In this document: positions 36,503 through 63,159 of the stretch, piece by piece
Layout: every line of letters starts with the position of its first letter
How positions within the stretch are numbered: the stretch's first letter is position 1
Assembly: GCA_964187785.1 (NCBI GenBank)
Contig: OZ076409.1
Coordinates: 8,620,001-8,684,000 of the forward strand
Direction: 5' to 3'
DNA: 64,000 nucleotides
From: Amphiscolops sp. MND2022
Lineage: Eukaryota
Translations under genes and position numbers: made by a program
The notes under the pieces: generated by a model
Told to the model about the DNA's origin: nothing
What the model saw: the letters and a program-made list of their open reading frames with translations, nothing else
Databases searched by the model: none

Positions 36503-39500
36503 ATGTTCCATTACTCGGGCGATCTTTGGGAAAAGTGCTGTGAATGGATGGAGTTGATAGACTTTACGGCCCAGCAAAACTATCCAATTCCCTCCGTTTC
36601 CAAATCGAAGAACGAGAAAGAATTTCAAAGTGCTCTCAAAGATGGTTCAGCCCTTTGCTATTTACTGCACCACATCGACCCCGATTCCATTGACAAGAAA
36701 AATATTCGGCTCAACTGTTCAGCGTCGCGAGATCAATCCATCCACAATGCCCAAATGTTTTTGTCATCATGCGAGGACTATTACATGCAAGGGTGTTAAA
36801 ATAATAATTGTCGGGAAAATAATTAGCAATAAATAAATTGCAATTATTCATTTTTGACCAAAAGCAACACAACTTATTTAATTTTGAAGGCAATTATTGT
36901 AGCAAAATAGTTTTTGGTGTAGTTTACGCGTATGCGTAGAAATCCTAATGGGATTACCGATTTTGGAACAAAAATTGTTGCCAACCAATCTCTAAGCCGA
37001 GGTGTTCTTGCGCTCAAACAGGCCTTTTTGGGATGTACAAACTGCTTGTGAGATGAGAAACCAAGAGGCTGACAAAATCAATGATTTCGGGGGATGAAAG
37101 AATTCAATGAAAGAATTCTGGGGAAACAATTGCGCAATAATTAATTGTTTTCGGTTTGACAATAATTGAATCATGGGTTCAATAATTTATTGTTTCTCCT
37201 GAATTCAACACTCTTGATTGCATGACACTCACTTGTGACCTGTTCGAAGCATCGATTCTGTACGAGTGCCAACAACTGGACGCTGTGTTTTTGGCTCTGA
37301 GTTCTCTCAGCAAGACGATGCGATTCGCGGAAGTCATGCTCGAGAAATGCCACAATGTCCCTATTTTTGAAATACACGAGGAATTCAATGGTAAATGATT
37401 TGGCGGAAAAATGGTATTCTTGGAGTACTGTTTTCCATCTCGGAAAAGGATGAGAACCAATTTGCGTTGTTGATTTTTAGGATTCGAAAAAAATGCACTC
37501 GTACCTTTTCCCCTGACCTTTCAATGAAAATTACATGTTTCTGAAAAACTGTCCATAAGATTTCTATAAAATTTAGCACAGTCATTCTACACCCAAAGGA
37601 GGCTCCTACGTGCGCAATGGCATCAAAAGTTTATGACTAGGACTTGAGAAAGATTTAGTCCAAAAATGACCGAAAAACTGCCATTTTTTGGTCTTTTTTC
37701 GATTTTGTCAAAATCTGTCTATACGATTCGAACGAAATTCTCTTACAATCATTCTACGCCGCATTAGGGTCCTATGTGTGCAATGACATGAAAATCGTAT
37801 GACTTGGATCTGAGAAAGAATGCCAAAGATAGTCCAAAATAATGACCAAATGAAAATAAAGGACGTAATTTGTTTTCCAATATTTTAATCCGTTTCCGAC
37901 TCTTTTACCGCACATGCGGCTCCGGTTCCAAAAGCAAAAATCTACCTTTGTTGAAAGTTTGAAGACTAAATTACTGACTCTAATCTAAAATTCACTCAAA
38001 TTTCAATGGAGTTTTTGATTCACATTTTGCTTTTAAACACGTTTTTAGTCTGCGCATTTTTTATGTTCCCCTCTTCGGGATTTCCGTGTTTCAACTTTAA
38101 GATCGACAATTTTGAGCTTAGAGGGTCCTCAATCCCCGGCTTTTCGGCACTGTGCAATTTTTTAGCGATTTTTGATTTATTTTTTCAAAAATCACCATTT
38201 CAATTTTTGACGTTTCAAGTTTAAAAAGCGTTTTATGGATCCTTTGGATAATTTCCGCACCGAACTATTTCCAAAAAAATTGAGTCACCCTGAGCATAAT
38301 TTAAGGGCAGAGTTTTTGAGTCTTTAGTGGGGCGCCGACTTTAGAAGGTCTCGTCTTGTTAATCCTTCAAACAAGCAAACGCTTTCAAATATCTTTACCG
38401 CCAAACAAACAGATGAAGGAGAGGATCACATGTACCATCTAGCTGGATCCCACACCGAATCCACTTTCAATTCGGATTACATGGCATGCACACAGTTTGA
38501 GCTTTCGACGGATGACAGTGTCTACGACAGCATGATGAGTCAGTATCTCAGCACGACTCTTGCCAACACATCTGCCTCAGTCGACTCCTCGGCATCTTCT
38601 TCGATCTACGTCACCATGTCTCTATCTGACCATTCCAATGTCACGGGTTCGAACCCCATTCTCGCCGAATTATTAGAGAAGGAATCGGGTTTTATTCAGC
38701 TTCTATCGGAACTCCTTCAACTTTACAAAATAAAACTGATTAATATATCGAGTGAACATTTCGACCCAATTTTTTGCGGTGACTTGTTTGACAACATGAA
38801 GGATCTTCACGAAGAAATGAGGAGGCAAATGAATGTTGCGGGTTCGACTTCAAAGGATGAAATTGAAAATGTGTGCGATGTCTTTCAGAAAAACAAAATC
38901 AAGATAGCATCCGTGTATTCCAAATATTTCACACAGATCGATTCCAGTGTTTCAAAGTTGCAACAACTTCTGGACGAGAATCCCTTTCTCCGAGATATTT
39001 TTGAGCGCATTAAAAAAGAGGCATTTGAAGATTCTCAGTGTAAAGCATTCGATCTTTGTGTTGTGCTTCGGGTTCCGTTTCAACATGTTCTGAGGTACCA
39101 ATTGTTTTTTGATCGTTTATGTGAGAAGGTTATTCCTTCAGTAGCTCCTGGAAGCAATACTCGGCTGGTCAACACCTTGGAAAAGACAGCGGAAATGATG
39201 AAAGACTTGAATGAACATTTTAACGAGTGCAAACGCAACATGGAATCTTTACAGTATCTCTCCGTCAAGTTCAAAGATGTATTAGATTCCAGTGATCCCG
39301 AAGAAGAAGCGAAATCTTTTGGGAAATTTCTGAAAGAAGAAGAATTTCCGAAAGTAAAAGTGGGGAAATCATTTTGGAGTAAAACCGATGTACTTCTTTT
39401 CCAGAAAGCTGTCGTGTTTCACAATAAAACTAAACATCTAGTGCTTAAATTAGACACAAGTGTGGTAGATACGCACAGTAAACCAAATGTTATGACCTTT

Positions 39501-40505
39501 AGAGGAGATTCAGATTACAGAACAGTGGAATTGGTCATCAAAAATCAAGATTCATTCGATACGTGGAAAAATTTGGTTGACAAAGTTTTGGAAGTAAACT
39601 GGCTTAAAGAAAGCAATCACCACAAAGTAACTCTGGAATCTTTCGAAGACGTCGCTTTCTGTGTTGTTTCTGGGAAGATCTTGAAGGGTAGTTACAGTCA
39701 GGGTTACCAATGCTCAAAGTGTAAAGCGTGTTTCCTCGATTTGACAAGTCTCCGAAACTCCAAACCTTGTCAGAGTTCCCCGGCTACTTCTTGCAGCAAT
39801 CTTCCTGCTCTGAGAAGCTTTTTTGAGAACCACAGTTTCACAGAAAACAAAGCCCAAGTCCGCCCAACCTCACCGACTATATGCAAGGATCCTGAAAACA
39901 TAGATCTTACATCTATGACCAACCTTATTCTCGGGAGTCTCGATGAACTCTCAGAGTATCCCTGGTTCTGCCCAATCAAGAACCGAAAAACTTCCTACAA
40001 AGTTTGTTCACTGCTCCCTGAGAACACCTTTTTGGTTCGAAGAAGCGAAAACGATAGAAACTCGGCCGCTCTCATGATCAAACATAAAACGAAAGTTCAC
40101 AATATGAAGATCACTGTTTGGCCTCAAACTGGTTGTTGCGGGCTGACACAACATTTGACCTTCTCAAGTATCCCAAAACTGGTCGAGAACTTCCAAACCA
40201 ATTCTCTTTCAACCTGCATCCCAGAATTACAGACGACTCTCATTTTTCCATTCAAGGAAGGCTTGAAAAGGATGAAAAGCTCGTTGGATTCTTCAAAACA
40301 TCAGAGTTTAGCTTTTTTGAAGAGATCAGCCTCCGTTTGTATAGAGAACAATTGTTGTGAGTTGCAACCGGGTGACATTGTGATTGTTCAGTTGCAGCAA
40401 AATGATCCCAAATCTTCCAGAGTTGAAGGGTTTGTCGAAACAAAAGCAGGATCTTTCAAATCACATGAATTTTATCTTCCGGCTGACATTCTTGAACCAA
40501 TTTAG
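36503..40505 (+). CDS. vav: Vav-like Rho/Rac guanine nucleotide exchange factor (CH - acidic - DH - PH - C1 - SH2 - SH3-like), divergent
   Basis: Segments 36503-36787 (DLWEKCCEWM...ALKDGSALCYLL, CH), 37225-37390 (DLFEA...VFLALSSLS) and 38413-40505. The last has DH (VPFQHVLRYQLFF), C1 (GYQCSKC) and SH2 (YPWF...TFLVRRS...FSSIPKLVENFQ). Intron 37391-38412 is GT-AG, phase 1. Confidence 0.85.
36788..37216. mobile_element. hAT-type MITE inserted in the vav CH-domain coding sequence
   Basis: TIR CAAGGGTGTT / AACACTCTTG; TSD ATTACATG / ATTGCATG. Confidence 0.8.
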
Positions 40506-41434: not shown

Positions 41435-42130
41435 TTTAACAATCGCTTTTTACTAGATTTCTATTCGTTTCAACTTTCGATGCGCAGGGCGATTGTTGGG
41501 GTAAATGGATATATTTTGTTTTTAAAAGTGACTAGTGGATATTTCTAAAAAAAGAACAAAAAAAAGTCTATAAGAAAATGAAAACTCAATTTTAAAGAAC
41601 GATATTTACTGACCAAAATTATTAAGTAACAAACAGCAACTTACATTTGGCTTGATGGATGATGTTATGGCTGTGATAGTTTTCGGTTTCTGAAGATACT
41701 TCTGCAGGTGCAAGAAACGAATAAATAATTAATCCTGCACTGGGTAAGAGTGGGGCTTTTGATGAATGTTAATAAAGGAGCAGCTGAATTGGGCGCATAA
41801 AATAATAAGAGCAGCTTTAAATAAGGGGCAGCTGAAATAAGGGGGCGGCTGAACAATTGGGAAGCTGAATCAGACTCAACAAAATATTTATTACTGCGAG
41901 GCAGCTGGATTTTTAGAAACGACCACAAGGCTTTTTAAAATGCACACTGCCTGGAACTGCCTGGATAATTGTTTGTAAAATATTTTAAAAAAGTAAAATG
42001 TGCACAACAATTGTTACAATGTATATTAAGCAACGCTGTTAATATTTTTCAATATATAGATGTGTATATGTAACGTGTATGAAGTCTCACATGTATTAAA
42101 AAATTCATTTCCTGTTTACTGTCCGCTATA
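41435..42130 (-). repeat. 3' LTR
   Basis: Direct repeat of 53482-54177; same length, no difference seen by eye. Confidence 0.95.
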
Positions 42131-42145
42131 CTACCCTCCCCCGTG
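42131..42145 (-). other. Polypurine tract
   Basis: Minus strand CACGGGGGAGGGTAG abuts the 3' LTR. Confidence 0.85.
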
Positions 42146-42170: not shown

Positions 42171-43241
42171 TTACTCGAACCAGTCCGACATGTGTGAGTC
42201 ACAATCCTTGCAGGTCCGTAAGTTACGACGGGCCCGGCGAACACCTGTCATACCGCAACACTGGTATACTTTGTTGAGCCGGGGATCCGTGAGGACGTTT
42301 TTCGCTTCCTTAAGGCAGGGGACCAGTTGGGACACTTCGGCTGGGATGGAAGGGTTCTTGTCGGGGTGTACGAGTCTTAAAAGATGTCTAGCATGACGAT
42401 TGATCTTTTCGACATCGGCTGTAGGTGGCAGGCCAAGTATATGAAAGAATATGTTCTCATCTGCGAAATCGAGTTCAGGAGTATATGTGGAAAGTTGATA
42501 AATTAGCATGTCAGTGGTTAGATGGGCATCTGAAACCCTGTTGGCGGCTAGTTTAAGGTTAGAGAGTTCTTCGCTTTGCTGGAGACTGTGTTGCAGCAAA
42601 GAGCTGTTTTCGTCGCTGAGGGCACTGAGGCGCTTCTTCAGGGCGGCTATTTCACTGTCTTTTTCGGCGAGGGCGACGACTTGAGAAGCAATGTTGGTTT
42701 GTAAACCAGCGAGCTCGACTTTGCTTCATGAATTTCCTTTTCCTTTGCCTTCCGAAGAGTCATTTCCTCGCAAAGGAGGTCGAACGTATGCTCACACTCG
42801 ATGCGAGCCTTATTAGCTGCTGCACGGGCTTCTTCAAAACCCTTATTGAGTTCGCCAACCGAAGAAAACTCTGATACTAAGAGTTCCATGCTGTCGTCAG
42901 CGTCGAGGGACGCATCCACTGCTACATCGCAGGTGTCCACTATTAATTTAGGGGGTACTGGCGAGCAATCACAGATTGCTGGAGGGGGAGGGCAGTCCAC
43001 TTCCACGCTCAGGCTGTTACTGCTTGGAGGAGGAAGCCAGATTTCCGTAGCTGGTCGAGCAAAGCAACGATTACTTGAATTAATTTTTTGTAGCACAACA
43101 GTTTGTGTAGCGGGGTTTATTCTCTTGATACGATAATCGTCTTTGTCCAACAAGCGGACTACATATCCCTCTGCCAGGGGCTGCACGCGGCCGCTGCTGA
43201 GGAGGAAGGGCGCTGGAACTGGAGCTGCTGGAAACTGGAAC
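42171..43241 (-). CDS. Accessory coiled-coil + J-domain (DnaJ, HPD) protein, split by a 1-nt frameshift near 42720
   Basis: Upstream frame runs to ...EKEIHEAK. The -1 frame opens at 42725 as KVELAGLQ... (coiled coil), then FFHILGL...LVHPDKNP...EAKNVLTDP..Y and a CKDC tail. Acceptor TTTCAG|G at 43242/43241. Confidence 0.75.
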
Positions 43242-43362
43242 CTGAAACAACAAAAAAACTGATTGCACCGATTACACTTTGTACGGAAATCCTACTTAGG
43301 ATGCGGAAACGCATCTGCTAGACACTAATTGTTTAAACAATTAGGAAAAAACTTAATTGCGG

Positions 43363-43737
43363 ACACGGAAACGTGTGTTGTGAGGCACTAGTTGCGTAGC
43401 GAAGCAACTAGGAGAAAAAGACAGCTTAGCGAAAAGAGATTCACCACGGAAACGTGTATCAATACAGGCGCTAGTTGCGTAGTGAAGCAACTAGGAAGGA
43501 AAAGACAATCTAAGGGAAAGTAACGGAACACGGAAACGTGTAAAACAGGCACTAGCTGCGTAATAAAGCAACTAGGAAGGAAAGGCAACCTAGAGGAACG
43601 TAAGTAACACGGAAACGTGTAGAACAGGCACTAGCTGCGTAGTAAAGCAACTAGGAAGGAAAGGCAACCTAGAGGAACGTAAGTAACACGGAAACGTGTA
43701 GAACAGGCACTAGCTGCGTAGGAAAGCATCTAGGAAG
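43363..43737. repeat. Tandem array of about five 80-bp double-hairpin units
   Basis: Each unit has CACG-GAAA-CGTG and CTAG(T/C)TGC-N8-GCAACTAG. Confidence 0.85.
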
Positions 43738-46152
43738 GGAAATCCTAAGTAGTTGATAAAGAAGCTGAAATTGACAGTGAGACAGAAATGTGCTAAACAA
43801 TTAAATGATGTCGAAGTAGACTCATAAGTAGGCGCACTAATATTAGGATAAACACGTGGTGGAAGTGTAGGGGCGTTGGGTGCAGTGTAATTAGATGGTT
43901 TCGGTTCAGCTTGACGAATGGTTTCGCGAGCCAGCAAAATCAGTGCGCGGAATTCAGCGTCCGTCAAATACAAAAATGGAGAATTGGTCAAATCATACTC
44001 CGCGGTAATTGATTCGACTATATTAATGAATCTACCGGAAGTAGCCCGGAAAAAGCGTTGAGGATTGGTAAAAAGACGCTGCCAATGACGTCTAAACAAA
44101 GTAAAACTTATAGAAAATGTTAAAATAGACATTGTAATGGACAATGACGAAAGTAAAAAAGCAGTACGGGTGGGTAAATATGACTGTAAAGCTGCTGATG
44201 TGGCCGGCGAGATCGAAGAATAATACTTAGCGATTGGCTCTGTCAGTTGATCTAGAGTTTCCGGCGACATGTGTTGGACGTCAGGTAGTTCGGCTAGTTC
44301 CATTCGTAGACTGCCAAGAACTGACTGACGAGCTTCACTCGTAGAATATGCCTGAAATTCGGCGCTACCAATGGCGGGTACATGCGCGAAGACTTGATTC
44401 AAAGACGGTGTCAGCTCAATCGACGCAAGAAAAGGCTCCGGCCGGGTCTCGCAAAAATCCATGTCAGGATGAAGAACCAGTTCACCCTGGTTGAAAGACA
44501 GTGTACTCGAACAGCTAGGGCGTATGACACACGCCTGACAGGTGATAGTAGAGATAGAAAGGCCGTCAATTTGGCTATCGTTTTTGAATTTGAGGGTGGG
44601 AGACCGTGATATGACGTGGTACATCCCATCCGCCAAATAAAAAGCCTGAGGAGCGTCGGGTAAAAGTACTGCGCGGACTTCGCAATTGCGTAAGGCGGGA
44701 ACATCGTAGTTATAGAACAAGGATCCTAAGCAAAGAAGAGTTTCATCGGTTGTTGTTGAGAAGCCTTTTCTACATAATTTGATACGATTGTTGCCCGAAC
44801 ATTGCTGCAGCGTGTTAGCACCGAGCTCTGCAAATCTACTATTGTCAGTAGATACTGCCAAAAAAGGGTTCGCAAAATTGAAGAGCGACGCAGTTTTCTG
44901 GTCATTGTTGGGCTGATACAGAGGCGTGGCATGGTAAATGTCAAACGTCGACGACTTTGAATTCATTGGGATCCCAAGAATGACAGATATACCACGTGGT
45001 ATCAAAGTTACTTCGAGTACTAATTGTATCTCATAGTATATTGCCTCAAAACCAGGTCGAATAGCTGGGGACAGTTTGGTGCCTCGCTTTACTTCGTCAT
45101 CTGCTAAGTCTTTGACAATTTGCGCCACTTGTTGAGGCAGAAGAAACTGAGGTGTGATGTAGCCACTAGCTAACGAGGAAATGGTGGAGTAGAGCGAAAT
45201 GCGGTAAGCGTAAAACGCTGCACGGTACGACTTGAGATGAGTGTAAAGTGTCCCTAGCTGATAGACGTAATTTCGCAAGAATTGCTGAAGGCTAAGGTGA
45301 CGAATAATCACTCTATCACACTCAAGGCTAGTCGCAGCCAAGTAGCGAGTAGCATTAACTAGGTAAAACTCCATTTGTTGGAAGCGGAGACCGACACTTT
45401 CTTTTAGTTTCTGGACACTTTCCTGGGTCTGTTTAATCTCGTTTCCTAGAAGGAAGAAATTCTTGTCGTTTCGAGTTTGAACACGCTGCAGTGTATCAAC
45501 TATTTCTTGCTGTGTGCTCATTATGCGTTCCACGTCGCGACTCAGATCTTCATTGGTGTGACAGAGATTAAATATAGAAAGCGCACTACAAGCGGCGTCT
45601 TTGATTGGTTCACCCAAGACCATTCCGGCACCTGCTGCGATTGCAGCAATAGCGGCAATTGCTCGACGTGGTCGTGCGATGTCATCAGATTGTCTAACAG
45701 CTGGTGGAATGAAAGAATTCACAACTTCCAGAAGAGTGTCTTCCTCTTGTTGAGCTGCTGCCAACTCTGTTTGCAGGAAATTGACTCTTGTCACAAGTTG
45801 TTGCAGGAGGAGGTCATAGGTGTCATTAACGTCTGTAAACTTGCAGTTTGTATTGATGTACATACCTCCGATGCTTCGAGGGGCTGTCTGGAAGGCATTG
45901 ATCATGTTAATGGCATTGGTAATGTTGATTAGAGGCATCTTGGGGAAGGGAGAGAACACGCGGACTTTGCTTTCGCTCTCCGAGGTAACAGCTTGGTATT
46001 TGAACACAAACGCTGCACCTTTCTTGAATACGGGTTTTTCCAGGTCATCGTTGAGGTGTGTTGTGAACTGCACATCCGCAAAGATCAGGACCGACCAACG
46101 GACGAACAGAAAGAGAAACCAGAAATGTTGAGAGTTTGGAAAGTAGGAAATC
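43710..46152 (-). CDS. env: Envelope glycoprotein, class I F-type fusion protein
   Basis: In-frame hydrophobic signal FWFLFLFVRWSVLIFA upstream of the called ORF. Furin site RPRR is followed by fusion peptide AIAAIAAIAAGAGMVLG, a heptad region, a Cys-rich block and TM AFLLSSLSITMSILTFSISFTLF. Confidence 0.85.
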
Positions 46153-46396
46153 CTGAAAAACAGAGGAGCCTTGTTAGGCCATTGGTGATGGGAAATGACC
46201 TGGAGAGAGAAATAAAATGCAACTATTTGAAGTTATTTCTTTTTTGTATAGTTTTTGGAACGTTTGGTGGAATGTGGCATGCTGTGCAGTGGCGGCGAGT
46301 TGAAATCGGTTAGTTCAGAAGGTATTGAGGAATTACACAGGGGTTCCGCCAATCGCTGTGTGCGTGTACTTGCGCGGAGATTGTATGGTCTGTTTA

Positions 46397-47140
46397 TCAT
46401 ATCTCAAAACTGAACAGCAGCGTTTTCAACGATGTTTCGGGATTCGTTTGACAAAGGTGAATGGGATGCTGGTGCTTGACGATAGCTTGGGTTGTCGACT
46501 GAGAAGTTGCGGGAGTGGCCATCGTCTGAACTCCAGGAGATTGAAAAGATTGGGAATGCTGATTACCGGAGAGGAAAGCGGGAGTTCGGGTTTGGGTCGG
46601 TGACTGAGCATTGTGGCTAGTTAATTGTGGCGTTGGAGTAGTCTGGTGGTTCAGGTGAGCAGGGCTGTGGAGATTCACAGGCTGCAGTGGTGGCTGTTGA
46701 AAATGCATGCAGCATCGATGCGAGGTTTCAGGTGGTGTGGTGTTCAAGTCGTTATTCCGTGTTGGGACATTGGAGTGAACTGGTTTTGTGGGCTGGGTTA
46801 AGCTAGTATTTCGAGTAGGCACATTTGAAGTAGCTGGTTTTTCGCAAAAAGGTTTCAACCTATCGTAGTGAACGATCAGCTCTTTGGACGTAGACAATTC
46901 TCTTATCTTGTATGTGACCTCATTGAAACAGTCAAGTATCACATATGGACCACGCCATGGGTTGTGGAACTTGGTTGTTTGGCCAACTGGGACCACTGGT
47001 GTGTGGAGCAACACTTTCTGTCCCTGTTCGTAGGTAGGACCATGGATCTTCTCGTTGTAAATGGCGTTGCGACGTTTTTGGTTTTTATTAATGTTGGCTC
47101 GCACTAGTTCGAAAGCTCTTTGGAAGGCCAATTTTCGATT
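46397..47140 (-). CDS. Integrase C-terminal (GPY/F) segment, in frame with pol after an internal TAA
   Basis: KFHNPWRGPYVI...VHYDRLKPF; same frame as pol (...TDFV*NRKLAFQ). Confidence 0.85.
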   Translation of the reverse strand, partial: NRKLAFQRAFELVRANINKNQKRRNAIYNEKIHGPTYEQGQKVLLHTPVVPVGQTTKFHNPWRGPYVILDCFNEVTYKIRELSTSKELIVHYDRLKPFCEKPATSNVPTRNTSLTQPTKPVHSNVPTRNNDLNTTPPETSHRCCMHFQQPPLQPVNLHSPAHLNHQTTPTPQLTSHNAQSPTQTRTPAFLSGNQHSQSFQSPGVQTMATPATSQSTTQAIVKHQHPIHLCQTNPETSLKTLLFSFEI

Positions 47141-50100
47141 TTATACAAAATCCGTAGGCGACATTGGTTTTTCGGCTTCAGGTGCAGGGTGCATCAAATC
47201 GATTGGCAAGGAAATTTCTCGCCCATGAACAAGAAATTGAGGCGAATATCCGGTTGATTCATGTACAGATGACCGGTAGGCCATCATTACGGAGGGTAAC
47301 TGTTGGGACCAGTTACTTTGTTCAGCGTTCACGCATTTTGCTAGCATGTTCTGGATTGTTCGATTCATTCGCTCGATCACTGCATTAGACTGGGGCCTAA
47401 AAGCAGTTGTTCTTGTTTTGTCAATGTGAAGGCTTGTCATGAGCGTCTGGAACAACTTGGACTCAAAATTACGTCCTTGATCACTATGTATGCTGTAGGG
47501 GCAACCAAATCGACAGATCCAATGTTCGATAAGAGCGGTAGCCGTTGTTGTAGCTTGCTGATCTGGCAAGGGAATTGCTTCATACCATTTTGTGAAATGA
47601 TCCCCGATCAACAGAATTACTTTGTTTCCATTCGAGGCCGGCAATGGGCCCATGAAATCGATTCCAATGTGGTGAAAGGGATAACTAGCTTTCCACTCTA
47701 CAAGGGAATGACGATGTGTTTTGGGAGGATCCGAGCGTCGCTGACATTCGGAACAACGTTTTATGAAAAGCTTGATATCCTCTTTGAAACCAGGCCACCA
47801 AAAACGCTGTCGAACTTTCTCCATCACCTTGGCTAAACCTAGATGTCCACTGGTAGCGGAAGAGTGCAAGTTTGTTAGGATATGTTCTACCAAGGTACGG
47901 GGAACAATTTGCTGTAGGTACGGAAGTTCACTTCCAACTGGTTCATACCGTCGACAAAGAACGTCATTGGCCAGATATAAACTGTGGAATTGATTGTACA
48001 GCTTCCATGCTAACTCGGGACTTCCTTGTAGGTCGTTATTCCGCGGCACACGACCCCTGCGAACCCATTCTTTTACGATCTTCAGGGCCTCGTCCTCATC
48101 TTGAGCATTGCGGACATCAATGTCCGCATGCACTGGTTCATTATCTTTAGCGGTTTCTACGGGTGGGCCTTCGCTCTCAAGTGAAATTGATGGAGGCAAA
48201 TAAATAGTTATACATACATTGGATCCGTCAAAGACTTCTCGGATGAGTCTGCGAACCAAATCCCAGTCAAGTTTATCATTTCCACAGCCTATTTGAGGCA
48301 TACTAATCTTTAGGACGTCGTTCGTTTCAGCATGGCTACGCATGTGTTCCAGAGAAGCTCGAAGTGAAGTATATGTTGGCTTTTGGTAGTAACGTTCCTT
48401 AGTCAGCAAGTGATACAGGAAACGGCCGTCACCAGGTAATGGTTGTACCCAAAGTGGCACAGTTTGCTTTGATAAGTCCTCTGGATACTGTGCTGGGAAC
48501 TTCCTTTTGAATGATCGGGCTATTCCAGAACTCATTTTAAAATCAGCTGAGATACAGTGAGCTAGGGACTCCGAAGAACTGAACAAATCGCCCTTCACCT
48601 CGCGATACTTGACAATGCCTGTTTCTGTAATGACTAGTTCTTCTTGTAGAGGCTTTTCTTGTGGTTGCTCGTGTTCGAGAAGTTCGCCGGTTTTAACTTT
48701 GCTGTGATTATTAGCTTTTTCCTTGAGTTCAATGATAGCTTGGAGTGGTATTGATGCTGTATCTCTAGGCAATAGGTGAATACTGTAGTTAGATTGTGCG
48801 TTGGGCCATTCCTCGTCATTGTTGCAATTCTTCGTCTTTGTTGCACCTGGGACTCCTGTTCGGCATTCTTGCGTTAATTGGACGGATTCAGTTGGTATTC
48901 TGGACAGACTGTCGGCATGTCCGATGGATTTGCCTGGTCTATGTTGCACTTCGTAATCAAAAGCTGCTAGTTTTTCAATCCAACGTGCAATGAGACCGTC
49001 GGGGTCCTTGAAATTGTGTAACCAGCGAAGTGCACTGTGGTCTGTGACAATTTTGAATTTTCTACCGAGTAGGTAATGTCGGAAGTACCGAGTGAAATGG
49101 ACCATTGCGAGAAGTTCTCGTTTCGTCGCTGAGTACTTTGATTGGGATTTGGAGAATGCCTTTGATGCATAGCAAATAGCACGTTCCTGGCCATTTTGTA
49201 CTTGGGCTAGAACGGCTCCCATTGCTAGTTGGCTGGCATCCGTGTAGAGGATGAAAGGATCTTCCATTGTTGGAAAGGCTAAAATTGGTGTTGTGAGGAG
49301 TCGTGCTTTTAGATCTTCAAACGCTTGCTCTGCCTCAGTTGTCCACTTAAAAGGCGAGTTGGTTTCACTCGCTTTATGCAAGGGACGAGCGATTTCAGCG
49401 AAGTTTTTGATGTAACGTCTATAGTAGGAACAAAGGCCCAAGAATGACTTCACCTGGGTCTGGTTAATTGGGACCGGAAACTCTTTAACGGCTGCAATTT
49501 TTGTGGGATCAACTTGAAGGCCTTCTTTGCTGATGACATGGCCCAAGAAGTGGACTTTGGTGCGGAAAAACTCGCATTTTAGGGGGTTTATTTTCAAGTT
49601 GGCTTGTCTAAATCTGCCTAGAACTTCCCTGACTCGTTCTAAGTGTTCCTCCGGGGAAGCGGCAAAGATGATACAATCGTCAAGGTAGGGGACTGTTGTT
49701 TTCCAGATAAGTTTCGCCAAAACGATTTCCATTAAATTTTGGAACGTCGGTGGACTGTTTGTGAGTCCCATCGGCATTACAAGCCATTTGAAGGAACCAA
49801 AAGGTGTGCTGAAAGCAGTATAATCTTGACTTGATTCGTCTAAGGGCAGCTGATAAAATCCCCAACTCATGTCTATAGTGGAAAAGACTGAACTTCCATC
49901 TAGAGTGTCAAAAATTTCTTCAATCGAAGGGATTGGCCAACAAGACTTGATTGTTTGACTATTCAATTGTCTGTAGTCAATGACGAGGCGGAGTTTTCCG
50001 TTTTTCTTCGGGACTAGCATGGCGGGTGCACTGTAAGGGCTGTGACAAGGAGCTATTAACTTCTTGTCCAGGAACGCGTCTAATTTCTCTTGGAGATCCT

Positions 50101-51148
50101 GTTTATAGTGGAGGGGCATTCTGCGATTCGGAATTTTAATCGGCTTTGATCCGGGGTATACGTCTATTTTGTGTGTTGTAGCTTCGCAACGACCAATGTC
50201 CCATTGGTTTTGCGAAAACACATCTTCGAATTCGTAAACAAGTTCTGCGAATTTCTGTTTTATTTTGAATGGAATTTCCGGATCAACTCCATCCACTACA
50301 TTTTTCAAATCGTACGATTCGTCCTTTTCGTCTATTTTAGACTTCAAGCTTTTTGTTTCGGTTACAACGTTTTGTATGGGTAAATCAGGGATTGCTTCTG
50401 AAGTACCCAAAGTTGTTTTCTCATACAAGATCAGTGGCTCTTCTCCAGAATTTTCGATCGTCACCGGGATGTTTTCCTCAGCAAAGTTGAACAAAATACT
50501 TGGTGCCACTGCTTCTTTTGAGCCATCGAACCGTTCGTGCGGCTGGAAAATTGCTACACCCTCATTCAATGGGCGTTTCCAATCCTTGATGTGCGCTGGC
50601 ACAATCATTGTATGTCGTGGTGGTACCGAAACTGTCTCGGACACCACCACCCTGAACACAGTTGTCTTAGCATCTGTGAGCTGACGATGATACAGGGGGA
50701 CTGTCGTCTTTTCATCCAGACGCAGAATATCTTGGGAAAACAACGGGTCGCATTTATGAGTTTTGAGGAAGTCTAAGCCGAGTAGACAGTCAGCTTCTGC
50801 TTGCTCCAGAACGTGAAACGAATGTTCGTAATGTCTCGGACCGATTTGCAAAGGTAGTTGCACAATGCCGCATGTTACTATAGGTTGTTTGTTGGCTGCT
50901 ACTAGCTTCGTGTCTGACGGTTTTAGCTCTAATTTCTTCCCGTTCTTCAATTTCCCAAATGCATCAGAACTCAGGCAAGACACACTTGCTCCACTATCAC
51001 ACACAGCCTCAATCACCGTATTAAAAATGGATAATTGGACGAATACACTTCTGTGATCCACCACAGAGTTAAGAGTCTGAATTTGTGGGCCTCGGTTTGT
51101 GGTCTTGTCTGCGCTCTGACCCGCTAGCGTAGACATTTCTAGTTTAAA
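47141..51148 (-). CDS. pol: Pol polyprotein: protease - RT - RNase H - macrodomain - integrase
   Basis: DSGA protease; LRLVIDYR, MPMGL and YLDD (RT); YTDAS and TDHSAL (RNase H); GDLF...GCGND (macrodomain); HHCC zinc finger and D,D,E integrase core. Confidence 0.95.
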   Translation of the reverse strand, partial: FKLEMSTLAGQSADKTTNRGPQIQTLNSVVDHRSVFVQLSIFNTVIEAVCDSGASVSCLSSDAFGKLKNGKKLELKPSDTKLVAANKQPIVTCGIVQLPLQIGPRHYEHSFHVLEQAEADCLLGLDFLKTHKCDPLFSQDILRLDEKTTVPLYHRQLTDAKTTVFRVVVSETVSVPPRHTMIVPAHIKDWKRPLNEGVAIFQPHERFDGSKEAVAPSILFNFAEENIPVTIENSGEEPLILYEKTTLGTSEAIPDLPIQNVVTETKSLKSKIDEKDESYDLKNVVDGVDPEIPFKIKQKFAELVYEFEDVFSQNQWDIGRCEATTHKIDVYPGSKPIKIPNRRMPLHYKQDLQEKLDAFLDKKLIAPCHSPYSAPAMLVPKKNGKLRLVIDYRQLNSQTIKSCWPIPSIEEIFDTLDGSSVFSTIDMSWGFYQLPLDESSQDYTAFSTPFGSFKWLVMPMGLTNSPPTFQNLMEIVLAKLIWKTTVPYLDDCIIFAASPEEHLERVREVLGRFRQANLKINPLKCEFFRTKVHFLGHVISKEGLQVDPTKIAAVKEFPVPINQTQVKSFLGLCSYYRRYIKNFAEIARPLHKASETNSPFKWTTEAEQAFEDLKARLLTTPILAFPTMEDPFILYTDASQLAMGAVLAQVQNGQERAICYASKAFSKSQSKYSATKRELLAMVHFTRYFRHYLLGRKFKIVTDHSALRWLHNFKDPDGLIARWIEKLAAFDYEVQHRPGKSIGHADSLSRIPTESVQLTQECRTGVPGATKTKNCNNDEEWPNAQSNYSIHLLPRDTASIPLQAIIELKEKANNHSKVKTGELLEHEQPQEKPLQEELVITETGIVKYREVKGDLFSSSESLAHCISADFKMSSGIARSFKRKFPAQYPEDLSKQTVPLWVQPLPGDGRFLYHLLTKERYYQKPTYTSLRASLEHMRSHAETNDVLKISMPQIGCGNDKLDWDLVRRLIREVFDGSNVCITIYLPPSISLESEGPPVETAKDNEPVHADIDVRNAQDEDEALKIVKEWVRRGRVPRNNDLQGSPELAWKLYNQFHSLYLANDVLCRRYEPVGSELPYLQQIVPRTLVEHILTNLHSSATSGHLGLAKVMEKVRQRFWWPGFKEDIKLFIKRCSECQRRSDPPKTHRHSLVEWKASYPFHHIGIDFMGPLPASNGNKVILLIGDHFTKWYEAIPLPDQQATTTATALIEHWICRFGCPYSIHSDQGRNFESKLFQTLMTSLHIDKTRTTAFRPQSNAVIERMNRTIQNMLAKCVNAEQSNWSQQLPSVMMAYRSSVHESTGYSPQFLVHGREISLPIDLMHPAPEAEKPMSPTDFV
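51106..51148 (-). promoter_or_regulatory. -1 programmed ribosomal frameshift signal
   Basis: T TTA AAC in the gag frame directly before TAG, a 6-nt spacer, then stem TGTCTaCGCT/AGCGcAGACA. Confidence 0.8.
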
Positions 51149-52359
51149 TGTTCCCTTTTGGGAGCCTTGCATTCATTCTGGAAATGACCGACTCTCAAAC
51201 AATTGAAACAAGCTTTGCACTCCTTCGTTGTATGATTTTTGCGTGTGCAACGCTCGCACGGCTTCCGATTGTTTTGCGTGTTGTTATTGTTGCCTTGTTT
51301 CTTGGGATGGGGGGAATCTTGGCGATACTGTTGTTTTTGTGTTTTGTCAGATCTGCCTGCGTTATTTGGTCGTTCGCGTCCTTGTGACGACTGAAATCGT
51401 ACTGACTGGCCACTCCGATTGGAATCATTACTCTGCGATCTCGAGTGATCATTTCTGTTTGATGATTTTGTGTCTCGTCGTTGATGGAAATCATTATTGG
51501 ACCGATACGTTGACGACTGAAGTTCAGTTTGTAATGATCGAACAAAATCAGCCATAATTTTGGACGCTGATGGCTCCGCTTCAGAAGAAGTACTAACTCG
51601 GTTAACTGTTTGAGCGGCTTGGGGGTTTCCGTTCTCAATCTCCAGGAACGAATTCAGCTCCATAGCCAAGGACAAAGCATCATCCGCTGTGGCTAGCTTG
51701 GCTTTTCGGAGCTCCCATCGAAGCGTTTTGTCGCTTAACCCTTCAATGAAGCACGTCAGAACTACCGGATCAATCATAGCAGGATGATCCCGATATGCAC
51801 GACGCGCCAGCGTCCGAACGTCACATAGGAAAGATGAAATATCTTGGTTGGGTTGCTGCTTCGCGGCTTTCAATCTTGCTTTCAGAATATCGCCATTAGT
51901 TGTGTAATTCTGGCGGAACGCGTCAACGAGCATATCGAAGTTAGTTTGTTGTGATGGAGACAACGTAGTGTAGAAATGCAAAGCATTTTCTCTCAATCGC
52001 AACGCAAAATAATGTGGTCTGTTATCGTGTGCGTTCGAATACCAGCCTGAGAGAAGTGCTGCTGTGTTAAATTGTTGCAGGTAATCTTCGAAATCACCTT
52101 TTCCTGTGAAAGACTCTGGCATCAGACATGACGGAAGCGGGGCTATGTATGGAACACTTGTTGGGTTTTGTCTACCGCCAGGCAGAGTGAAAAAGGAAGC
52201 TGTTGGGGTTGTACTAGTGTTAGGAGTTGTAGAACCCACGGTAGGTGCTTGTGCTGGTGCTTGGGAGCTACTTGCACCACCACTAGTAACTGGGGTTGTA
52301 GTGGTATTGGTTACCGCTGTCGAGGTGGCCGTTGTGGGGGTGCTTGGTTGAGTGCTCAT
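51139..52359 (-). CDS. gag: Gag (406 aa from the first ATG)
   Basis: PESFTG...F..Y capsid-like region; two CX2CX4HX4C knuckles (CERCTRKNHTTKEC, CFNCLRVGHFQNEC). Confidence 0.9.
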   Translation of the reverse strand: MSTQPSTPTTATSTAVTNTTTTPVTSGGASSSQAPAQAPTVGSTTPNTSTTPTASFFTLPGGRQNPTSVPYIAPLPSCLMPESFTGKGDFEDYLQQFNTAALLSGWYSNAHDNRPHYFALRLRENALHFYTTLSPSQQTNFDMLVDAFRQNYTTNGDILKARLKAAKQQPNQDISSFLCDVRTLARRAYRDHPAMIDPVVLTCFIEGLSDKTLRWELRKAKLATADDALSLAMELNSFLEIENGNPQAAQTVNRVSTSSEAEPSASKIMADFVRSLQTELQSSTYRSNNDFHQRRDTKSSNRNDHSRSQSNDSNRSGQSVRFQSSQGRERPNNAGRSDKTQKQQYRQDSPHPKKQGNNNNTQNNRKPCERCTRKNHTTKECKACFNCLRVGHFQNECKAPKREHLN

Positions 52360-52400
52360 TGTATTTGAACGCTTAAAGTCTACGTTAGGTCTAGAACGTT

Positions 52401-52799
52401 TCACATGCGATCCATTCGCAGCGGACCAAAATTGAGACTAGGTGGTTTGCAGTCGGGATAGACCAAATAGAATGGATTCGTTACGTGTATTGCTAGAAAT
52501 TGAATATGAGAAGCCCAAATATTGGATAATTGAGGGAAAAAGGACGCACAGGAAGCTTTTACACTTGCATTGTTATCAACACGACCATACGGGAAAGTTG
52601 AACAAACGTTTCGATGTTGCCAATTGTGGATAGCCTCAAGACGCAAATGAATCGACAGTTCATGTGCCGTAAAACGACGTTCTGGTTGATGCGATAATGG
52701 AATTTTGAAAAGTTTCACTTGGCAGAAGTAGCAAGGAATAACGAAGTTTTGAGGCGGTGTGTTTGACAAAACGGAAACAGGTATGCTAAAAGTATACAT
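52401..52799 (-). CDS. Pre-gag accessory ORF 2 (132 aa, CYFC and His motifs)
   Basis: ATG-initiated; packed 10 nt after ORF 1 and ending 41 nt before the gag ATG. Confidence 0.5.
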   Translation of the reverse strand: MYTFSIPVSVLSNTPPQNFVIPCYFCQVKLFKIPLSHQPERRFTAHELSIHLRLEAIHNWQHRNVCSTFPYGRVDNNASVKASCASFFPQLSNIWASHIQFLAIHVTNPFYLVYPDCKPPSLNFGPLRMDRM

Positions 52800-52809
52800 T
52801 AGGCCGCTC

Positions 52810-53079
52810 CTACAGAGACGTATAGTCCACTCTTTGGGTTTGAAGTGCTTTACAAGTTATATTTATCTTGTTGATTTCGTACGACATCGCACAAAGGGCT
52901 AAAACGGTCAAGAGAAGCGCAAAACAGAGGATCAAGAGTAGAAAACTTAAAAAACAGGGCGTGAATATCGGTCTTTCACGTGTTTCGCTGTAAGAGGGCG
53001 GAGGACTTGATGGTCGAAGCGGTCGTTGGGGAAAAACGTACAACGGTAGGTGAGAATGCGTATTGTGAGCACAAGGCAT
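52810..53079 (-). CDS. Pre-gag accessory ORF 1 (89 aa, PPxY + single TM helix)
   Basis: ATG-initiated; PPPSY followed by a hydrophobic run of about 22 residues, FLSFLLLILCFALLLTVLALCA. Confidence 0.55.
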   Translation of the reverse strand: MPCAHNTHSHLPLYVFPQRPLRPSSPPPSYSETRERPIFTPCFLSFLLLILCFALLLTVLALCAMSYEINKINITCKALQTQRVDYTSL

Positions 53080-53462
53080 ATCAACAAAAAAATTCGCGGC
53101 GGTTATTAAAATTTAGGTTATCAAAAGAAAACGGAACTATTTTGATAGAAATGTTACAAAAAATTGGCTACTGTTTGTTTTATGACAAGCACTTACCGTG
53201 TAACTTCTTAAAACTTAAGGGCATTGGGTCAAATGTGCCATTTTAAAGCCTGAGACACGCCGAAGCGGAAAGACACAGCATTGAGCTGGAAAACTAGGCA
53301 CGGACCATGTCCGGATTGGGAATCTTATGGGCAACACTGGCGAACCAGGAAATGGCACATTTCAAAAAAATTTTTGGATCGGGTCTAGGACTAAGAATGT
53401 TTTGATGGGGGTTCTAAGTTACTTTAAATTTTTTTTTGTAAAAAAAACTTCTTTTCACAAAT

Positions 53463-53480
53463 ATCCCACTCCTGTCACCA
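53463..53480 (-). other. Primer binding site, probably tRNA-Leu
   Basis: TGGTGACAGGAGTGGGAT, 1 nt from the 5' LTR; resembles the complement of the metazoan tRNA-Leu 3' end (..ATCCCACTCCTGACACCA) with one difference. Confidence 0.8.
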
Positions 53481-53481
53481 T

Positions 53482-54177
53482 TTTAACAATCGCTTTTTAC
53501 TAGATTTCTATTCGTTTCAACTTTCGATGCGCAGGGCGATTGTTGGGGTAAATGGATATATTTTGTTTTTAAAAGTGACTAGTGGATATTTCTAAAAAAA
53601 GAACAAAAAAAAGTCTATAAGAAAATGAAAACTCAATTTTAAAGAACGATATTTACTGACCAAAATTATTAAGTAACAAACAGCAACTTACATTTGGCTT
53701 GATGGATGATGTTATGGCTGTGATAGTTTTCGGTTTCTGAAGATACTTCTGCAGGTGCAAGAAACGAATAAATAATTAATCCTGCACTGGGTAAGAGTGG
53801 GGCTTTTGATGAATGTTAATAAAGGAGCAGCTGAATTGGGCGCATAAAATAATAAGAGCAGCTTTAAATAAGGGGCAGCTGAAATAAGGGGGCGGCTGAA
53901 CAATTGGGAAGCTGAATCAGACTCAACAAAATATTTATTACTGCGAGGCAGCTGGATTTTTAGAAACGACCACAAGGCTTTTTAAAATGCACACTGCCTG
54001 GAACTGCCTGGATAATTGTTTGTAAAATATTTTAAAAAAGTAAAATGTGCACAACAATTGTTACAATGTATATTAAGCAACGCTGTTAATATTTTTCAAT
54101 ATATAGATGTGTATATGTAACGTGTATGAAGTCTCACATGTATTAAAAAATTCATTTCCTGTTTACTGTCCGCTATA
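53482..54177 (-). repeat. 5' LTR
   Basis: Direct repeat of 41435-42130; minus-strand AATAAA at 53934-53939; consensus donor AT|GTAAGT at 53686-53693. Confidence 0.95.
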
Positions 54178-54927: not shown

Positions 54928-55102
54928 CCAGGGGGTCAAAATTAGAAAGGGTACCGTTAGTTTCCAGACAAATAACTGGGAGGTCTTGATTACAGAGAAC
55001 AGAGAGGGGGAGGGGTTAACTGCCAAAGTGTTTAGTTGCCAAACACTATCAAACTTGCTCTCAAGCTTTTAAAAATAATAATGATTGAGATTCAGTGATA
55101 TA

Positions 55103-55570
55103 CAGTACTGTGATTAAGAAATCGTCCCCATGTGACGTTCTCAGCCAATCAAAATTGTTCATTTGGTCTCTCTTTCAATTCTGATTGGCGCATGAAGAGA
55201 AATTCACGTAAATTTAGGAAATTTTACCTTTTGAGCCTGATATTTCGGAAACGGTTGATCATTTTTGAAATCAAAATATATCTATCGATTCAGTAGATTT
55301 TTGGGAGTTAAATGAGCTTAAAATTTGTCAAAAAATCTGTGGATAAAACGGTCAAAAATAAGAAAAACGGCAAAAATTCCCAATTTTGCTGAAAATCAGC
55401 TATTTGTAACTTTCTCAATTTTTGTCTCAGAAATTTTTTTAAAAATACTAATGTAAACTAGATGAAATTCTAAGAAACTTTTATTTCTGATGTTTTTCAA
55501 AATTTCCAACCGATTTTGAGAAAATCGAGCCTAAAAACGTCCGGGGGACATTTCCTTAATCACAGTACTT
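55103..55570. mobile_element. Tc1/mariner-type MITE
   Basis: TIR of about 27 bp, CAGTACTGTGATTAAG...GTCCCC, flanked by TA on both sides. Confidence 0.7.
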
Positions 55571-57499
55571 TATAAGGAGGTTTACTTTCTGGGAAGTCTA
55601 AATTTTTGGATTCTGGCAGTTCTAAAGAGTCCCCCATTTGTTCTTTTTTTTCATAATTGAAAAATTACCGGATAAGTTTGTGTCTTCTGAATCTATGGCA
55701 ATGGTTAGCAAAACGCTAAGTTTAAACATGGAGAAGTTAGTTTATAACTCGCGTCTCATTTTCGTATAAATAGGACAGTAATGCGTTTATATATAATGTA
55801 TCATATTTGTAATATATTTCACCAGCAGTGTGTATGTGTGTAAAAATTTCGAAATGTATATTTAAAAAATAGTTCTGAAATACTTTTGTAATGATTTGTA
55901 ACCATCTAATAGTTAATGTTCTTATGTTTTCTTTTCTACTGAGTTAACAGAGATTTTCTATGACGTGTTGACTTTGAATCAGTGAAATACAGATCAGCAT
56001 TTTTTTCCTTTTCTAAAAATACGTTTTTTTTCTGTGATGTACGTTGCTTTTTGTGGTGTAGTTCACAGCATTACCTCTAATATTTTAGTCGGCGCTCTAT
56101 GAAATAGAGACAATTTCATGCCTAATGCCAAAATTCTACTTTTCTGCAACTTGGCCAACTCATAGGAAGGGTCCTCTCTTTCATTTTTTGACAGAGTTCG
56201 TTGAATTAAAACGAGATTTATGGGTTATTTTCGGCTCTATGAGACTTTTTTGGAAAGTTTTTCAATTTCCCAAAAGGGTCCCCTTGTATTTTTGGATACT
56301 TTCAGTAATAGGCCTTCTTAAGCTCAAAGGGTCCCTCCCCATTATTGTTTTTCGGCACTGTGCGATTGATGTTTTTTCAAAAAAGATTCCTTGAAGTCGT
56401 GAAGTACTTTTGCGCTTTTCTCACTGTGAGGTTGGAAATTGTTCAAAAAGAATTACTTAACCCTAATTAACCTGGTGGTACTTTAAAGCAGCCATTTTTT
56501 CAGTTTCTGATTCCTTTTGCCAGCAGCCCATATTCTCTAGCACATTTTTGTTTCAACCGTTCATTAGTACCTAGACTGATTTGAATGGCACAAGCATAAG
56601 GAAGAGTAATATGTCTCCAAAACTGAGAAAAATGAGTTTTTCGCACAAAAAATTGTTACTTTTTTTTCTAAATTTCAGTTTTTTTTTGGCGAAACCAAAC
56701 CCCTACACTTGCAAAACAAGTTATTACACAACAAGTCTCAATTATATTCTGTTGTTACTATAAGCCCCCGCGCAGCGGCACTACCGGGAAAAGAAACTAA
56801 AATTCTGAAGGAGGGGGTGCGCGGCGACAGGGGCTCACCTGGCCTGAATGAAAGCCCAATACCAGACCTTTCAAACGCGCTATAGTTCATTTCTCTGGTA
56901 CGCGTAGTTGTGGAGATATTAATTATTTAAAATTTTCAATCCGAATTTTTGAATTTTTGCAAAAATGCCCAGGTCCATTAGGGTTAAAGAGTTGAAGTAC
57001 TTTGTGCATTTTGAGTGTTGAACAGAGCGCCGACTTACGAAGTTTCCTTCACGACTTTCCTTTATACACAATCTTTTTGAGTTCAAACGTTTCTTCCGTA
57101 TGCTCGTATTCAAAAGGTTCTATCAGTAAACTGTTGTCTCCAGTTGTCGAAATATCGCGTCGTCTCTCGCTTAGTTTGCATTTTGTTGAATATCGCAAAA
57201 GTTGGTCACATTTTGTTAAATCCTCTGTATTCTTTTAGAGATTCATTTGTCATAGTTCAATTGATTCTTGTTCCTGCATTTATACGGCCTTTTCCTTGCT
57301 ATTCTCAGATTTCAATGAAAATTGAAATCGTTTCAATCTCAAACCACGATTGTTCGAAAATTTTGGTGTAAATTCATCAAGTGTAGTGTAAAAACAATTC
57401 TGCCTTCCATATTTCGAGTTTCATTGGTATACCGTATTTCTTCGAATACAGACCGCGACTTGTAAGTTTTTTCCATAGTGATTTCTCGGCCTGTATTTG

Positions 57500-57966
57500 A
57501 ACAAGCCGGGACCGGCCCAAGTCGGCGCCATATCCAAGGCTCAAAAATAGCAAAAGGACATCAAAGTTTCAAAGTATTCTCTTCTACAGCACTAAAATTT
57601 TTTTTTAAAAAGTCTCACAACGCCAAAAAAAATTGAAAGGGGAGACCCTTTGGGATTTTTCTATACCCAGGCTGTCGCAAAACCCAAAAAAATTGAAGGG
57701 GGGACCCTTTGGGGAAAATTTTTTTCCGAAAAAAAGTCTCGCAATGCCGAAAAAACTGAAAGGGGGGACCCTTTGGTCTCGTCCGGCATTGTATGTTATG
57801 CGGGAAACTTTTTGGTTCTGTTCCCTGGACCAACAGGTGAAATTTGAAATTTTGTAGAACTTTTGGTAGAACTATTTTGGTCAGTTCAGGTGGTCTTAAA
57901 AAAAACACTGACGAAAAGCCATGTCTATAGTCGACTCTTTTCTCTAGAAAAGCGCCGACTAAAAAA
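57500..57966 (-). mobile_element. HINE-like element copy
   Basis: Both termini present; similar to 12190-12592. Confidence 0.75.
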
Positions 57967-60269: not shown

Positions 60270-61260
60270 ATGTCTCAAAGAAGAGTATTTTCTTCAGAGT
60301 AGCTATAGTGATACCTTTTTATAAGGAAGGATCCAGTAATGAATTTGAAAACTATCGACCAATTGCTCTTCTGCCACCAATTGCTAAAGTCTTTGAACGC
60401 GTTTCGTATAAAAAAGATGATAAGTTACATACTGAAATACAATTTGATAATTGCCAAACAATTTGGATTTTTTCAGAAACGCAAGACAGTTGATGCGATT
60501 GCTTCGGTTATCGAAGAAATAAAATCCTGCTTAGATAGAAAAACACCTTCGTGTTGCCTAATTGATCTAAAGAAAGCATTTGATACAATAAATCATTCAA
60601 TATTACTTGAGAAATTGGATAATTACGGCTTCAGAGGACCTAATTAGCATATACGTAAGTCCTATCTCAGTATAGTACTCAATATGTACAAGTCGGTGCA
60701 CAAATGTCATCTTCACTTGATACTGAGTGTGGCGTTCCCTAAGGGTCTGTTTTAGGGCCATTGTGCTTTATTATATACGTAAACGATTTACCTTTGTGTG
60801 CGGATTCAAATTTCACCCTGTTCACTGATGACACAACTATATCAGAGAAAATTCCATCATTTGATCCCACGAAATTGAATGATCCATAGAGAAAATTGAT
60901 AGAAGGATGAAAGAGAAGAAACTTAAGTGCAATGTGAGTGAATCTACGGCCGTAGTATTTGATAATAACGTACCCTCTCAATTGAGTTTTGGACTTCATA
61001 ATATTTTGGTAAAACCGCAACTCAAGTACTTAGGCATTGTTATTCATGAAAAGTTGACATTCAGTGATCATTGTGCTTGAGTTAAAAACAAATTACACTG
61101 TTCTGAGAGCGGGAACGTTCTTACCAAGATCTCATTGCTGTCCTATTATAAAACGCTCGTAAACCCAATTGTTCAATTCGGCGTCCTAATATTTGGTTGT
61201 ACGCCATTCGAATCTTGATCCCGTTCTGAAAATCCGAAAAGGAATAGTCAGATCGATATG
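60270..61260 (+). pseudogene. Decayed LINE (CR1/L2/Jockey-like) reverse transcriptase
   Basis: YRPIALL..AKVFE, QFGF, DLKKAFDTINH.ILL.KL, GVP*GSVLGP, F(T)DDT and KYLG motifs, with stops and frameshifts. Confidence 0.85.
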
Positions 61261-62488: not shown

Positions 62489-62992
62489 CTTTTTTTTTAG
62501 TCGGCGCGTTTTCCTTTTAAGCAAAAAATGCCCGACTATAGCAGTGACCTTTTTTTTTCTTTTTTTCTTCAGACTACAATCCTCACACTGATCGGTCCAC
62601 TTTTTACAATTCTGCGCAGAGCCCGTGGCCAAGTCCGCCCAAGGCAAACTTTACTCCAAAGGGTCCCCCTTTCATTTTTTACTTTTTCAAGGAAACATAC
62701 AAAACCGGACGTGCCCAAAGGGTCCCCCCTTTGGATTTTTTTCGGAACTGTGCGACTTTTTTTCGAAAATTTTTTAATGTCCCCAAAGGGTCCCCCCTTT
62801 GAGTTTTTGATATTTTGCAACGGAATGTTTGTTAATAAATCCACAAGGGTCCCCCTTTTACATTTTTCGGCACTATGCGACTTCTTTTGAAAGAAAAATT
62901 TTTTTCAAAAATTTCAATTTTTTTTTCAAAAAAAGTGTTTTACGCTTTTTGAGCCTTAGATATGGCGCCGACTTTAGACGTTCTCGTCTTGT
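62489..62992 (+). mobile_element. HINE-like element copy
   Basis: Both termini present. Confidence 0.75.
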
Positions 62993-63159
62993 TCTAAACT
63001 GAATGAAATACCCTCGGATCCGTCACGAGAAGTCACGGGATCTTGATGTGTCTTGAAAAATATTCGAGAAAAGATTTATTCTACGATTCGGAAGCACTTT
63101 TTATTTGTTTCTCTCTGACTACCATCCGAAAATGGCGCCGACGTCGGAAAACAGGACTA

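Follow-up and report, generated by a model that had tools for sequence, protein, structure and literature searches.

We analysed a 64,000-nucleotide stretch of the Amphiscolops sp. MND2022 assembly (contig OZ076409.1, positions 8,620,001 to 8,684,000 of the forward strand), hereafter called the window. Its minus strand carries, from 54177 to 41435, an env-bearing Ty3/gypsy long terminal repeat (LTR) retrotransposon of the Metaviridae type. The element has a direct LTR pair, a primer site, a polypurine tract and a target duplication, and gag is followed by a pol with the order protease, reverse transcriptase (RT), RNase H, then integrase. An F-type (class I) env follows pol, as in errantiviruses in the broad sense, and a fourth gene, encoding a J-domain protein (the J gene), follows env. 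This study concerns the way in which env and the J gene obtain their start codons, probably from a single splice donor in the LTR. The features of the element, all on the minus strand and listed from its 5' end, are as follows (a slash within a motif marks the splice junction).

53482..54177, minus: 5' LTR, 696 bp, equal to the 3' LTR
53934..53939, minus: AATAAA at LTR position 239, putative poly(A) signal
53686..53693, minus: AT plus GTAAGT donor at LTR position 487, predicted to supply the opening two bases of both start codons
53591..53630, minus: acceptor-like pair inside the LTR (53614 and 53591), neither giving an ATG with the LTR donor
53463..53480, minus: primer-binding site, starting with TGG
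53191..53196, minus: leader donor GTAAGT (ACG/GTAAGT), not opening a long frame at either the env or the J acceptor
51139..52359, minus: gag, with its own ATG, Retrotrans_gag and a zinc knuckle
51142..51148, minus: TTTAAAC heptamer immediately ahead of the gag stop, predicted -1 frameshift into pol
46233..51172, minus: pol, with protease, RT, RNase H, macro domain and integrase
46199..46220, minus: strong acceptor 46199, phase 0 to env, matching donor not found
46152..46170, minus: env acceptor TTTCAG/G, phase 2
43710..46152, minus: F-type env, with predicted signal peptide, RPRR site, hydrophobic fusion segment and C-terminal hydrophobic segment
43242..43760, minus: env-J spacer, with tandem repeats of about 79 nt giving repeated hairpins, six with a G-UUUC-C loop
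43241..43260, minus: J-gene acceptor TTTCAG/G, phase 2
42171..43241, minus: J gene, with Tudor/KOW-like barrel, coiled coil, J domain with the residues HPD, and Cys-rich tail; frame change near 42718
42131..42142, minus: polypurine tract
41435..42130, minus: 3' LTR, with a second copy of the donor at 41644

The first-pass annotation had stated that neither env nor the J gene has an ATG at its 5' end, and this was confirmed: the first in-frame Met lies 72 codons past the env acceptor and 118 codons past the J acceptor. For env, this Met falls downstream of the predicted signal peptide, so that Env needs an upstream start if the signal peptide is to be translated. The same annotation had let both frames begin at a pyrimidine-rich TTTCAG/G, at 46152 and 43241, with the G as codon position 3. 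Both sites were as described, and 813 and 197 open codons follow them, respectively. They are also exceptional among the 332 YAG sites between 53600 and 42131. Forty of these have a G at +1, and six of the forty open at least 150 codons in phase 2; with at least 10 pyrimidines in 15 positions added, only 46152 and 43241 were left.

The proposed donor in the LTR, CCAAAT/GTAAGT, was found with the sequence and the coordinates claimed for it (T at 53692, G at 53691). It had further been placed downstream of the poly(A) signal. The lone AATAAA/ATTAAA hexamer of the LTR, at 53939, does lie 248 nt upstream of the donor; its poly(A) role, and with it a position of the donor in the U5 part of the LTR, is putative. 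Strong donors are otherwise rare in the element. The 11.35-kb internal region has two GTRAG motifs on its sense strand, whereas its dinucleotide shuffles have 15.3 (0 of 200 reached so few) and its antisense strand has 18; the coding frames have one, compared with 9.7 in synonymous-codon shuffles (0 of 300). No GTRAG occurs on the sense strand between 53196 and 42795, which limits cis-splicing to the env and J acceptors to two strong donors. The second of these, at 53196, was rejected as a source for env and the J gene: it is open from one upstream ATG, in phase 1, and gives 7-26 codons at three acceptors. The AT/G from 53692 is thus the sole single-donor solution that fits both start-less open reading frames (ORFs).

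Relatives of the J protein gave further evidence on the junction. Conservation of the fourth gene extends across a broad clade. Among 24 sibling proteins, at least three frames enter the acceptor and converge at a Phe-Arg pair at the junction, as expected if the T-run of variable length is intronic; assembly errors in homopolymers may contribute to these frame differences. Twelve of the siblings have called starts downstream of the junction, three use an upstream-ATG frame, three start with MQS, and six are other cases or fragments (called starts may be ATG, GTG or TTG). An exhaustive search with the J protein gave 163 matches, 150 of them listed, and the 35 distant families that reach the N-terminal domain were examined. 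Eleven of these start too late to be informative. The other 24 fell into four groups: Phe/Tyr-Arg at the junction, behind unconserved Phe/Cys-rich sequence (13 families; the pair has a background of 7.4% of 16-residue windows); Met exactly at the junction (4 families: P0170, P0187, P0213 and P0209); a start nearby (2 families); and neither (5 families). P0209 was put in the Met class, its scripted Phe/Tyr-Arg pair lying elsewhere. For P0170, the Met is found in all five members' length class, on contigs of up to 12.8 kb, and the N-terminus is therefore fixed where splicing would place it.

Two related loci could be compared at the DNA level around the J gene. L002, with an env 63% identical to that of the window, has a T-rich AG/G in phase 2 before its J homologue (E 3e-11). 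L001, with an env of 46% identity, has its J gene directly after env (24% identity, E 5e-15). At positions 2486-2560 of L001, a second AG followed by an in-frame TG, and an internal ATG, were seen at the J ORF. L005 and L006, two genome contigs, were rejected as J-protein relatives, their matches being weak ones to the coiled coil.

For env, 15 siblings (of 33) were listed, and in none of them does a called start precede the predicted mature Env N-terminus. Ten other env clusters were queried: Phe-Arg heads the signal peptide in three; in five, the called start of some or most members is fixed at about 17-22 residues ahead of the mature end; and two were uninformative. DNA of a further locus, L004, has an acceptor directly before the env ATG. 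The clade appears to use both solutions, the split start and an own ATG, with the acceptor as the constant part.

On this comparative evidence, which includes the junction signature in relatives, the earlier proposal that one donor is shared by two genes was supported: env and the J gene probably both start by alternative splicing from one LTR donor that ends in AT. One LTR promoter would then give rise to three RNAs. The first, unspliced, would encode Gag and, by -1 frameshift, Gag-Pol, and would be packaged. The second, spliced from 53692 to 46152 with removal of a 7,539-nt intron, would encode Env with its signal peptide. The third, spliced from 53692 to 43241 (10,450-nt intron), would encode the J protein. 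Neither Env nor the J protein would be made from unspliced RNA, because their start codon would exist only after splicing. Such a scheme would liken the element to a complex retrovirus. The third RNA would yield a full J protein from the continuous sibling genes, and a product ending before the J domain from the window copy. The spliced start claimed for the J gene in the window copy thus stood in part: the phase-2 opening at 43241 held, but in this copy the J domain does not share the frame of the spliced start.

Several observations count against this reading or narrow it. The split start is predicted from DNA and protein sequence. An AT by chance with two donors has a probability of about 15% (4 of 55 GTAAG sites in flanking DNA, about 7%, are preceded by AT), so that the AT alone is modest evidence, and the AT ahead of the donor is known from the LTR of one family only. 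Acceptor 46199 beats 46152 in pyrimidines and would give a 38-codon product from the LTR donor. The AGG codon of the junction Arg was confirmed in the window and L002 only. Exclusive use of the split start is opposed by L002, in which an in-frame ATG lies five codons upstream, within the pyrimidine tract, and by several J relatives with a called start a few residues ahead of Phe-Arg. The J ORF of L001 has its best upstream acceptor in a non-productive phase. Lastly, the fixed called starts in five of the ten env clusters mean that a split start for env is not universal.

The spacer between env and the J gene, 470 nt long, folds better than its shuffles (z -4.07). Five of its six G-UUUC-C hairpins have stems of at least five pairs, and L002 has four such hairpins at 1114-1431, three of them with at least five pairs; the L001 spacer has none. 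Elsewhere in the window, by comparison, a hairpin of this kind is formed at 1 of the 46 remaining occurrences of the motif. Over nine distinct hairpin copies, which were selected by the motif and include five window copies that are tandem duplicates, 93% of cells were paired, compared with 16-64% in slid controls. Compensatory two-sided changes were found in three of the five stem pairs (5 cells; 0 of 500 shuffles). A second repeated hairpin has four copies in the window spacer. Rfam gave no match of note to the spacer, only one chance match (E 0.93). If the splicing model holds, the array would be kept in the genomic and env RNAs and removed from the J RNA, which is the layout of a Rev-response element. 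We hypothesise, by analogy, that the J protein acts on the array.

Among the alternatives, a split ATG for env only is unlikely but fares best. In that case an internal promoter in the spacer would produce an RNA on which translation of the J gene begins at its own upstream ATG (43313 frame) or at a start close by. Three of the 24 sibling proteins have the upstream ATG in frame, the ATG of L002 favours a start of the J gene's own, and the repeated GTTTCCG could be a DNA-binding motif. However, the 43313-frame ATG is out of frame in the window copy and most siblings, the sequence upstream of the J junction is not conserved as protein, and several families lack a nearby called start. The spacer repeats, moreover, show the covariation of RNA hairpins, and it is the sense strand that has the G-U pairs.

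Somewhat less probable still is that a host spliced-leader RNA, ending in AT or, for the phase-0 site 46199, in ATG, is trans-spliced to the acceptors and supplies the start, the donor in the LTR playing no part. If the families shared one host leader, it would be clear why the phase has been retained in so many of them while their LTRs evolve fast. In the acoel S. roscoffensis, 30.2% of genes undergo leader trans-splicing (PMC9911081; acoel trans-splicing is also covered in PMC2481426), and 46199 is in phase 0 to env. The one acoel leader consulted, from PMC9911081, ends in AGA, which is neither AT nor ATG. An ATG-ending leader would suit env but not the J gene, since the phase-0 frame that starts at 43241 closes after 53 codons, and the element owns a perfect AT donor.

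Translation of Env from unspliced RNA, whether ribosomes read through a stop codon after pol or initiate at a non-AUG codon, is improbable as the general explanation. Three families were examined, and in each of them the pol tail and env share a frame (window 46403-46233, minus strand; L004 990-1217; P0422); P0422 is a continuous integrase-env fusion, and in-frame CTG, ATT and ATA codons lie upstream of the hydrophobic core. Such a route would leave the acceptor signature in the env and J relatives unexplained, would bury the signal peptide and would not cover the J gene; readthrough may contribute as a minor route to Env. Coincidence, with the ATGs decayed in the window copy, is very improbable and already largely refuted: this copy is indeed broken in pol, in the J gene and at the end of env, and a G at +1 is the usual splice acceptor consensus, but the ATG is missing from the corresponding position in siblings and in distant families too, and the two LTRs do not differ.

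The proposed splicing from the LTR donor would act in an element that is young, as its two LTRs have zero mismatches, which points to a recent insertion. It is bordered by the 4-bp target duplication TGTT. The LTR termini are TA...AA (54177/53482; 42130/41435); the usual LTR ends are TG...CA. No tRNA genes were found in the window. We take the TTTAAAC heptamer to belong to the -1 frameshift motif class. Between RNase H and integrase, at about 48420-48240 (minus strand), lies a macro domain (Pfam Macro, E 0.0034, below the cut-off). A 100-nt intron-like LTR segment (53691-53592, minus strand), together with the donor at 53196, suggests possible leader splicing for the gag RNA. The window copy is damaged or mis-assembled: pol contains a stop at 47143-47141 and shifts frame near 46400, the J gene changes frame, and env runs 32 codons beyond the end seen in 7 of the 15 listed siblings.

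The DnaJ match of the fourth gene (Pfam, E 3e-10) was above the cut-off. The frame opened at 43241 departs from the sibling sequence near 42718 and stops at 42647, and the J domain of the window copy lies in another frame, 42725-42171, beyond that stop; its J product would be truncated before the J domain. Sibling ORFs are continuous, with 338-383 residues. A structure model of a sibling protein (mean predicted local distance difference test score, pLDDT, 81.5) has a beta-barrel at residues 1-53, a helix of 108 residues and a J domain. The latter has the helical J fold with the HPD loop, matches known J domains (Z 9.1, root-mean-square deviation (rmsd) 2.5, 74 residues), and keeps HPD in most aligned relatives. 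The barrel matched the SMN Tudor domain (Z 7.9, rmsd 1.6, 51 aligned) as well as Spt5 and NusG (both 7.8), middling scores that do not separate Tudor from KOW. An Atlas search with the sibling reached only 0.76.

The F-type assignment of env rests on its relatives: Baculo_F was matched by 3 of 18 aligned env relatives (best E 5.4e-07), while the window protein itself had no Pfam match. Atlas features of env gave 0.95 to a cluster with Baculo_F in 12% of its members and 0.94 to Fusion glycoprotein F0, both of low recognition value. Among PDB sequences, env gave a weak match to a fusion protein (E 0.015), and the env structure model and its fold search were dropped as evidence (pLDDT 48). Scans of viral contigs with env, pol and LTR patterns found no relatives, and neither did an env search of genome contigs. 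Of two metagenome scans, the first found none and the second four loci, none of them with a usable LTR.

Outside the element, the plus strand carries an unbroken 725-codon Vav-like ORF at 38328-40505 (RhoGEF, C1 and SH2), which has three relatives at 98%, 56% and 35%. A dispersed repeat family occupies 1-38400 and 56000-63000, with about 20 copies, mostly on the plus strand, several of which end just upstream of plus-strand ORFs (16943, 24589, 38313). Long low-complexity plus-strand ORFs at 17058-17720, 18551-22882, 24676-25785 and 26217-27767 had no Pfam matches and are possibly large exons of one host gene. At 55099-55574, a pair of 31-bp inverted repeats (87%), 414 nt apart, is possibly the relic of a small DNA transposon.

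Known systems were compared on the accessible text of the papers cited here. Elements of the Drosophila springer subclade splice their env to an AU that supplies part of the start codon, at junctions mapped experimentally (bioRxiv 10.1101/2023.08.03.551782). These insect endogenous retroviruses (ERVs) resemble the window element in being Ty3/gypsy with an F-type env and a split AUG, a likeness that carries no claim of membership; unlike them, the window element has an in-LTR donor that would serve two genes, a fourth gene and a macro domain. Splicing of gypsy env is also noted in PMC8096092. The env-carrying Ty3/gypsy elements described across animals share gag-pol-env, a tRNA primer site, an F-type env, a signal peptide and a furin site (PMC13524379); the main text of that paper, as far as accessible, does not mention DnaJ, J-domain, macro, acoel or splic.

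Mammalian MaLR/ERVL LTRs carry a splice donor of their own and can provide exons further downstream with an AUG (PMC5538554). They supply a whole AUG to host exons, whereas the window LTR would supply two bases to the element's own genes. Bdelloid rotifer LTR elements have captured extra ORFs after pol that are reported to be expressed from spliced messages (PMC5408684). These are of exonuclease, esterase or env types, unlike the J-domain gene, and DnaJ and chaperone are absent from the accessible main text of that paper. For C. elegans Cer1, the protein CERV is required for the export of unspliced RNA (PMC10309623). Like Rev of human immunodeficiency virus 1 (HIV-1), CERV is an extra protein made from spliced RNA and encoded beside the 3' LTR, as the J protein would be. 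HIV-1 Rev binds a structured region of the genomic RNA, to which the hairpin array would correspond in position. Cer1 differs in that its ORF is described as unlike retroviral Env and that CERV shares exons with gag, and homology is not shown.

A split AUG for env is therefore already known; what would be new is that a J-domain gene, itself conserved, draws on the same LTR donor, and that hairpins form an array beside it. Literature searches found neither a J-domain gene in an LTR element nor a report of this clade, although coverage of subscription journals was thin and absence is not established. The searches likewise turned up no published case of a J-domain gene that shares an LTR donor, or of a covarying hairpin array lying between the genes.

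More speculatively, and as a joint proposition rather doubtful, an invertebrate Ty3/gypsy clade may have independently evolved the circuit of a complex retrovirus, with a Rev/Rev-response-element analogue built from a co-chaperone. The LTR donor would turn on Env together with a regulator made of Tudor/KOW, coiled coil and J domain, and this regulator would bind the G-UUUC-C array and recruit host Hsp70 to export or remodel the unspliced and env RNAs. Solo LTRs would give a start codon to any host exon that begins with G in phase 2. If the probable splicing from the LTR donor is right, then independently of this circuit one 8-base signal would strictly separate genomic RNA from the production of Env and the accessory protein, and the misplaced gene-caller starts of env and J ORFs would be explained. 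The clade would offer a testable case of accessory-gene regulation outside the vertebrate retroviruses.

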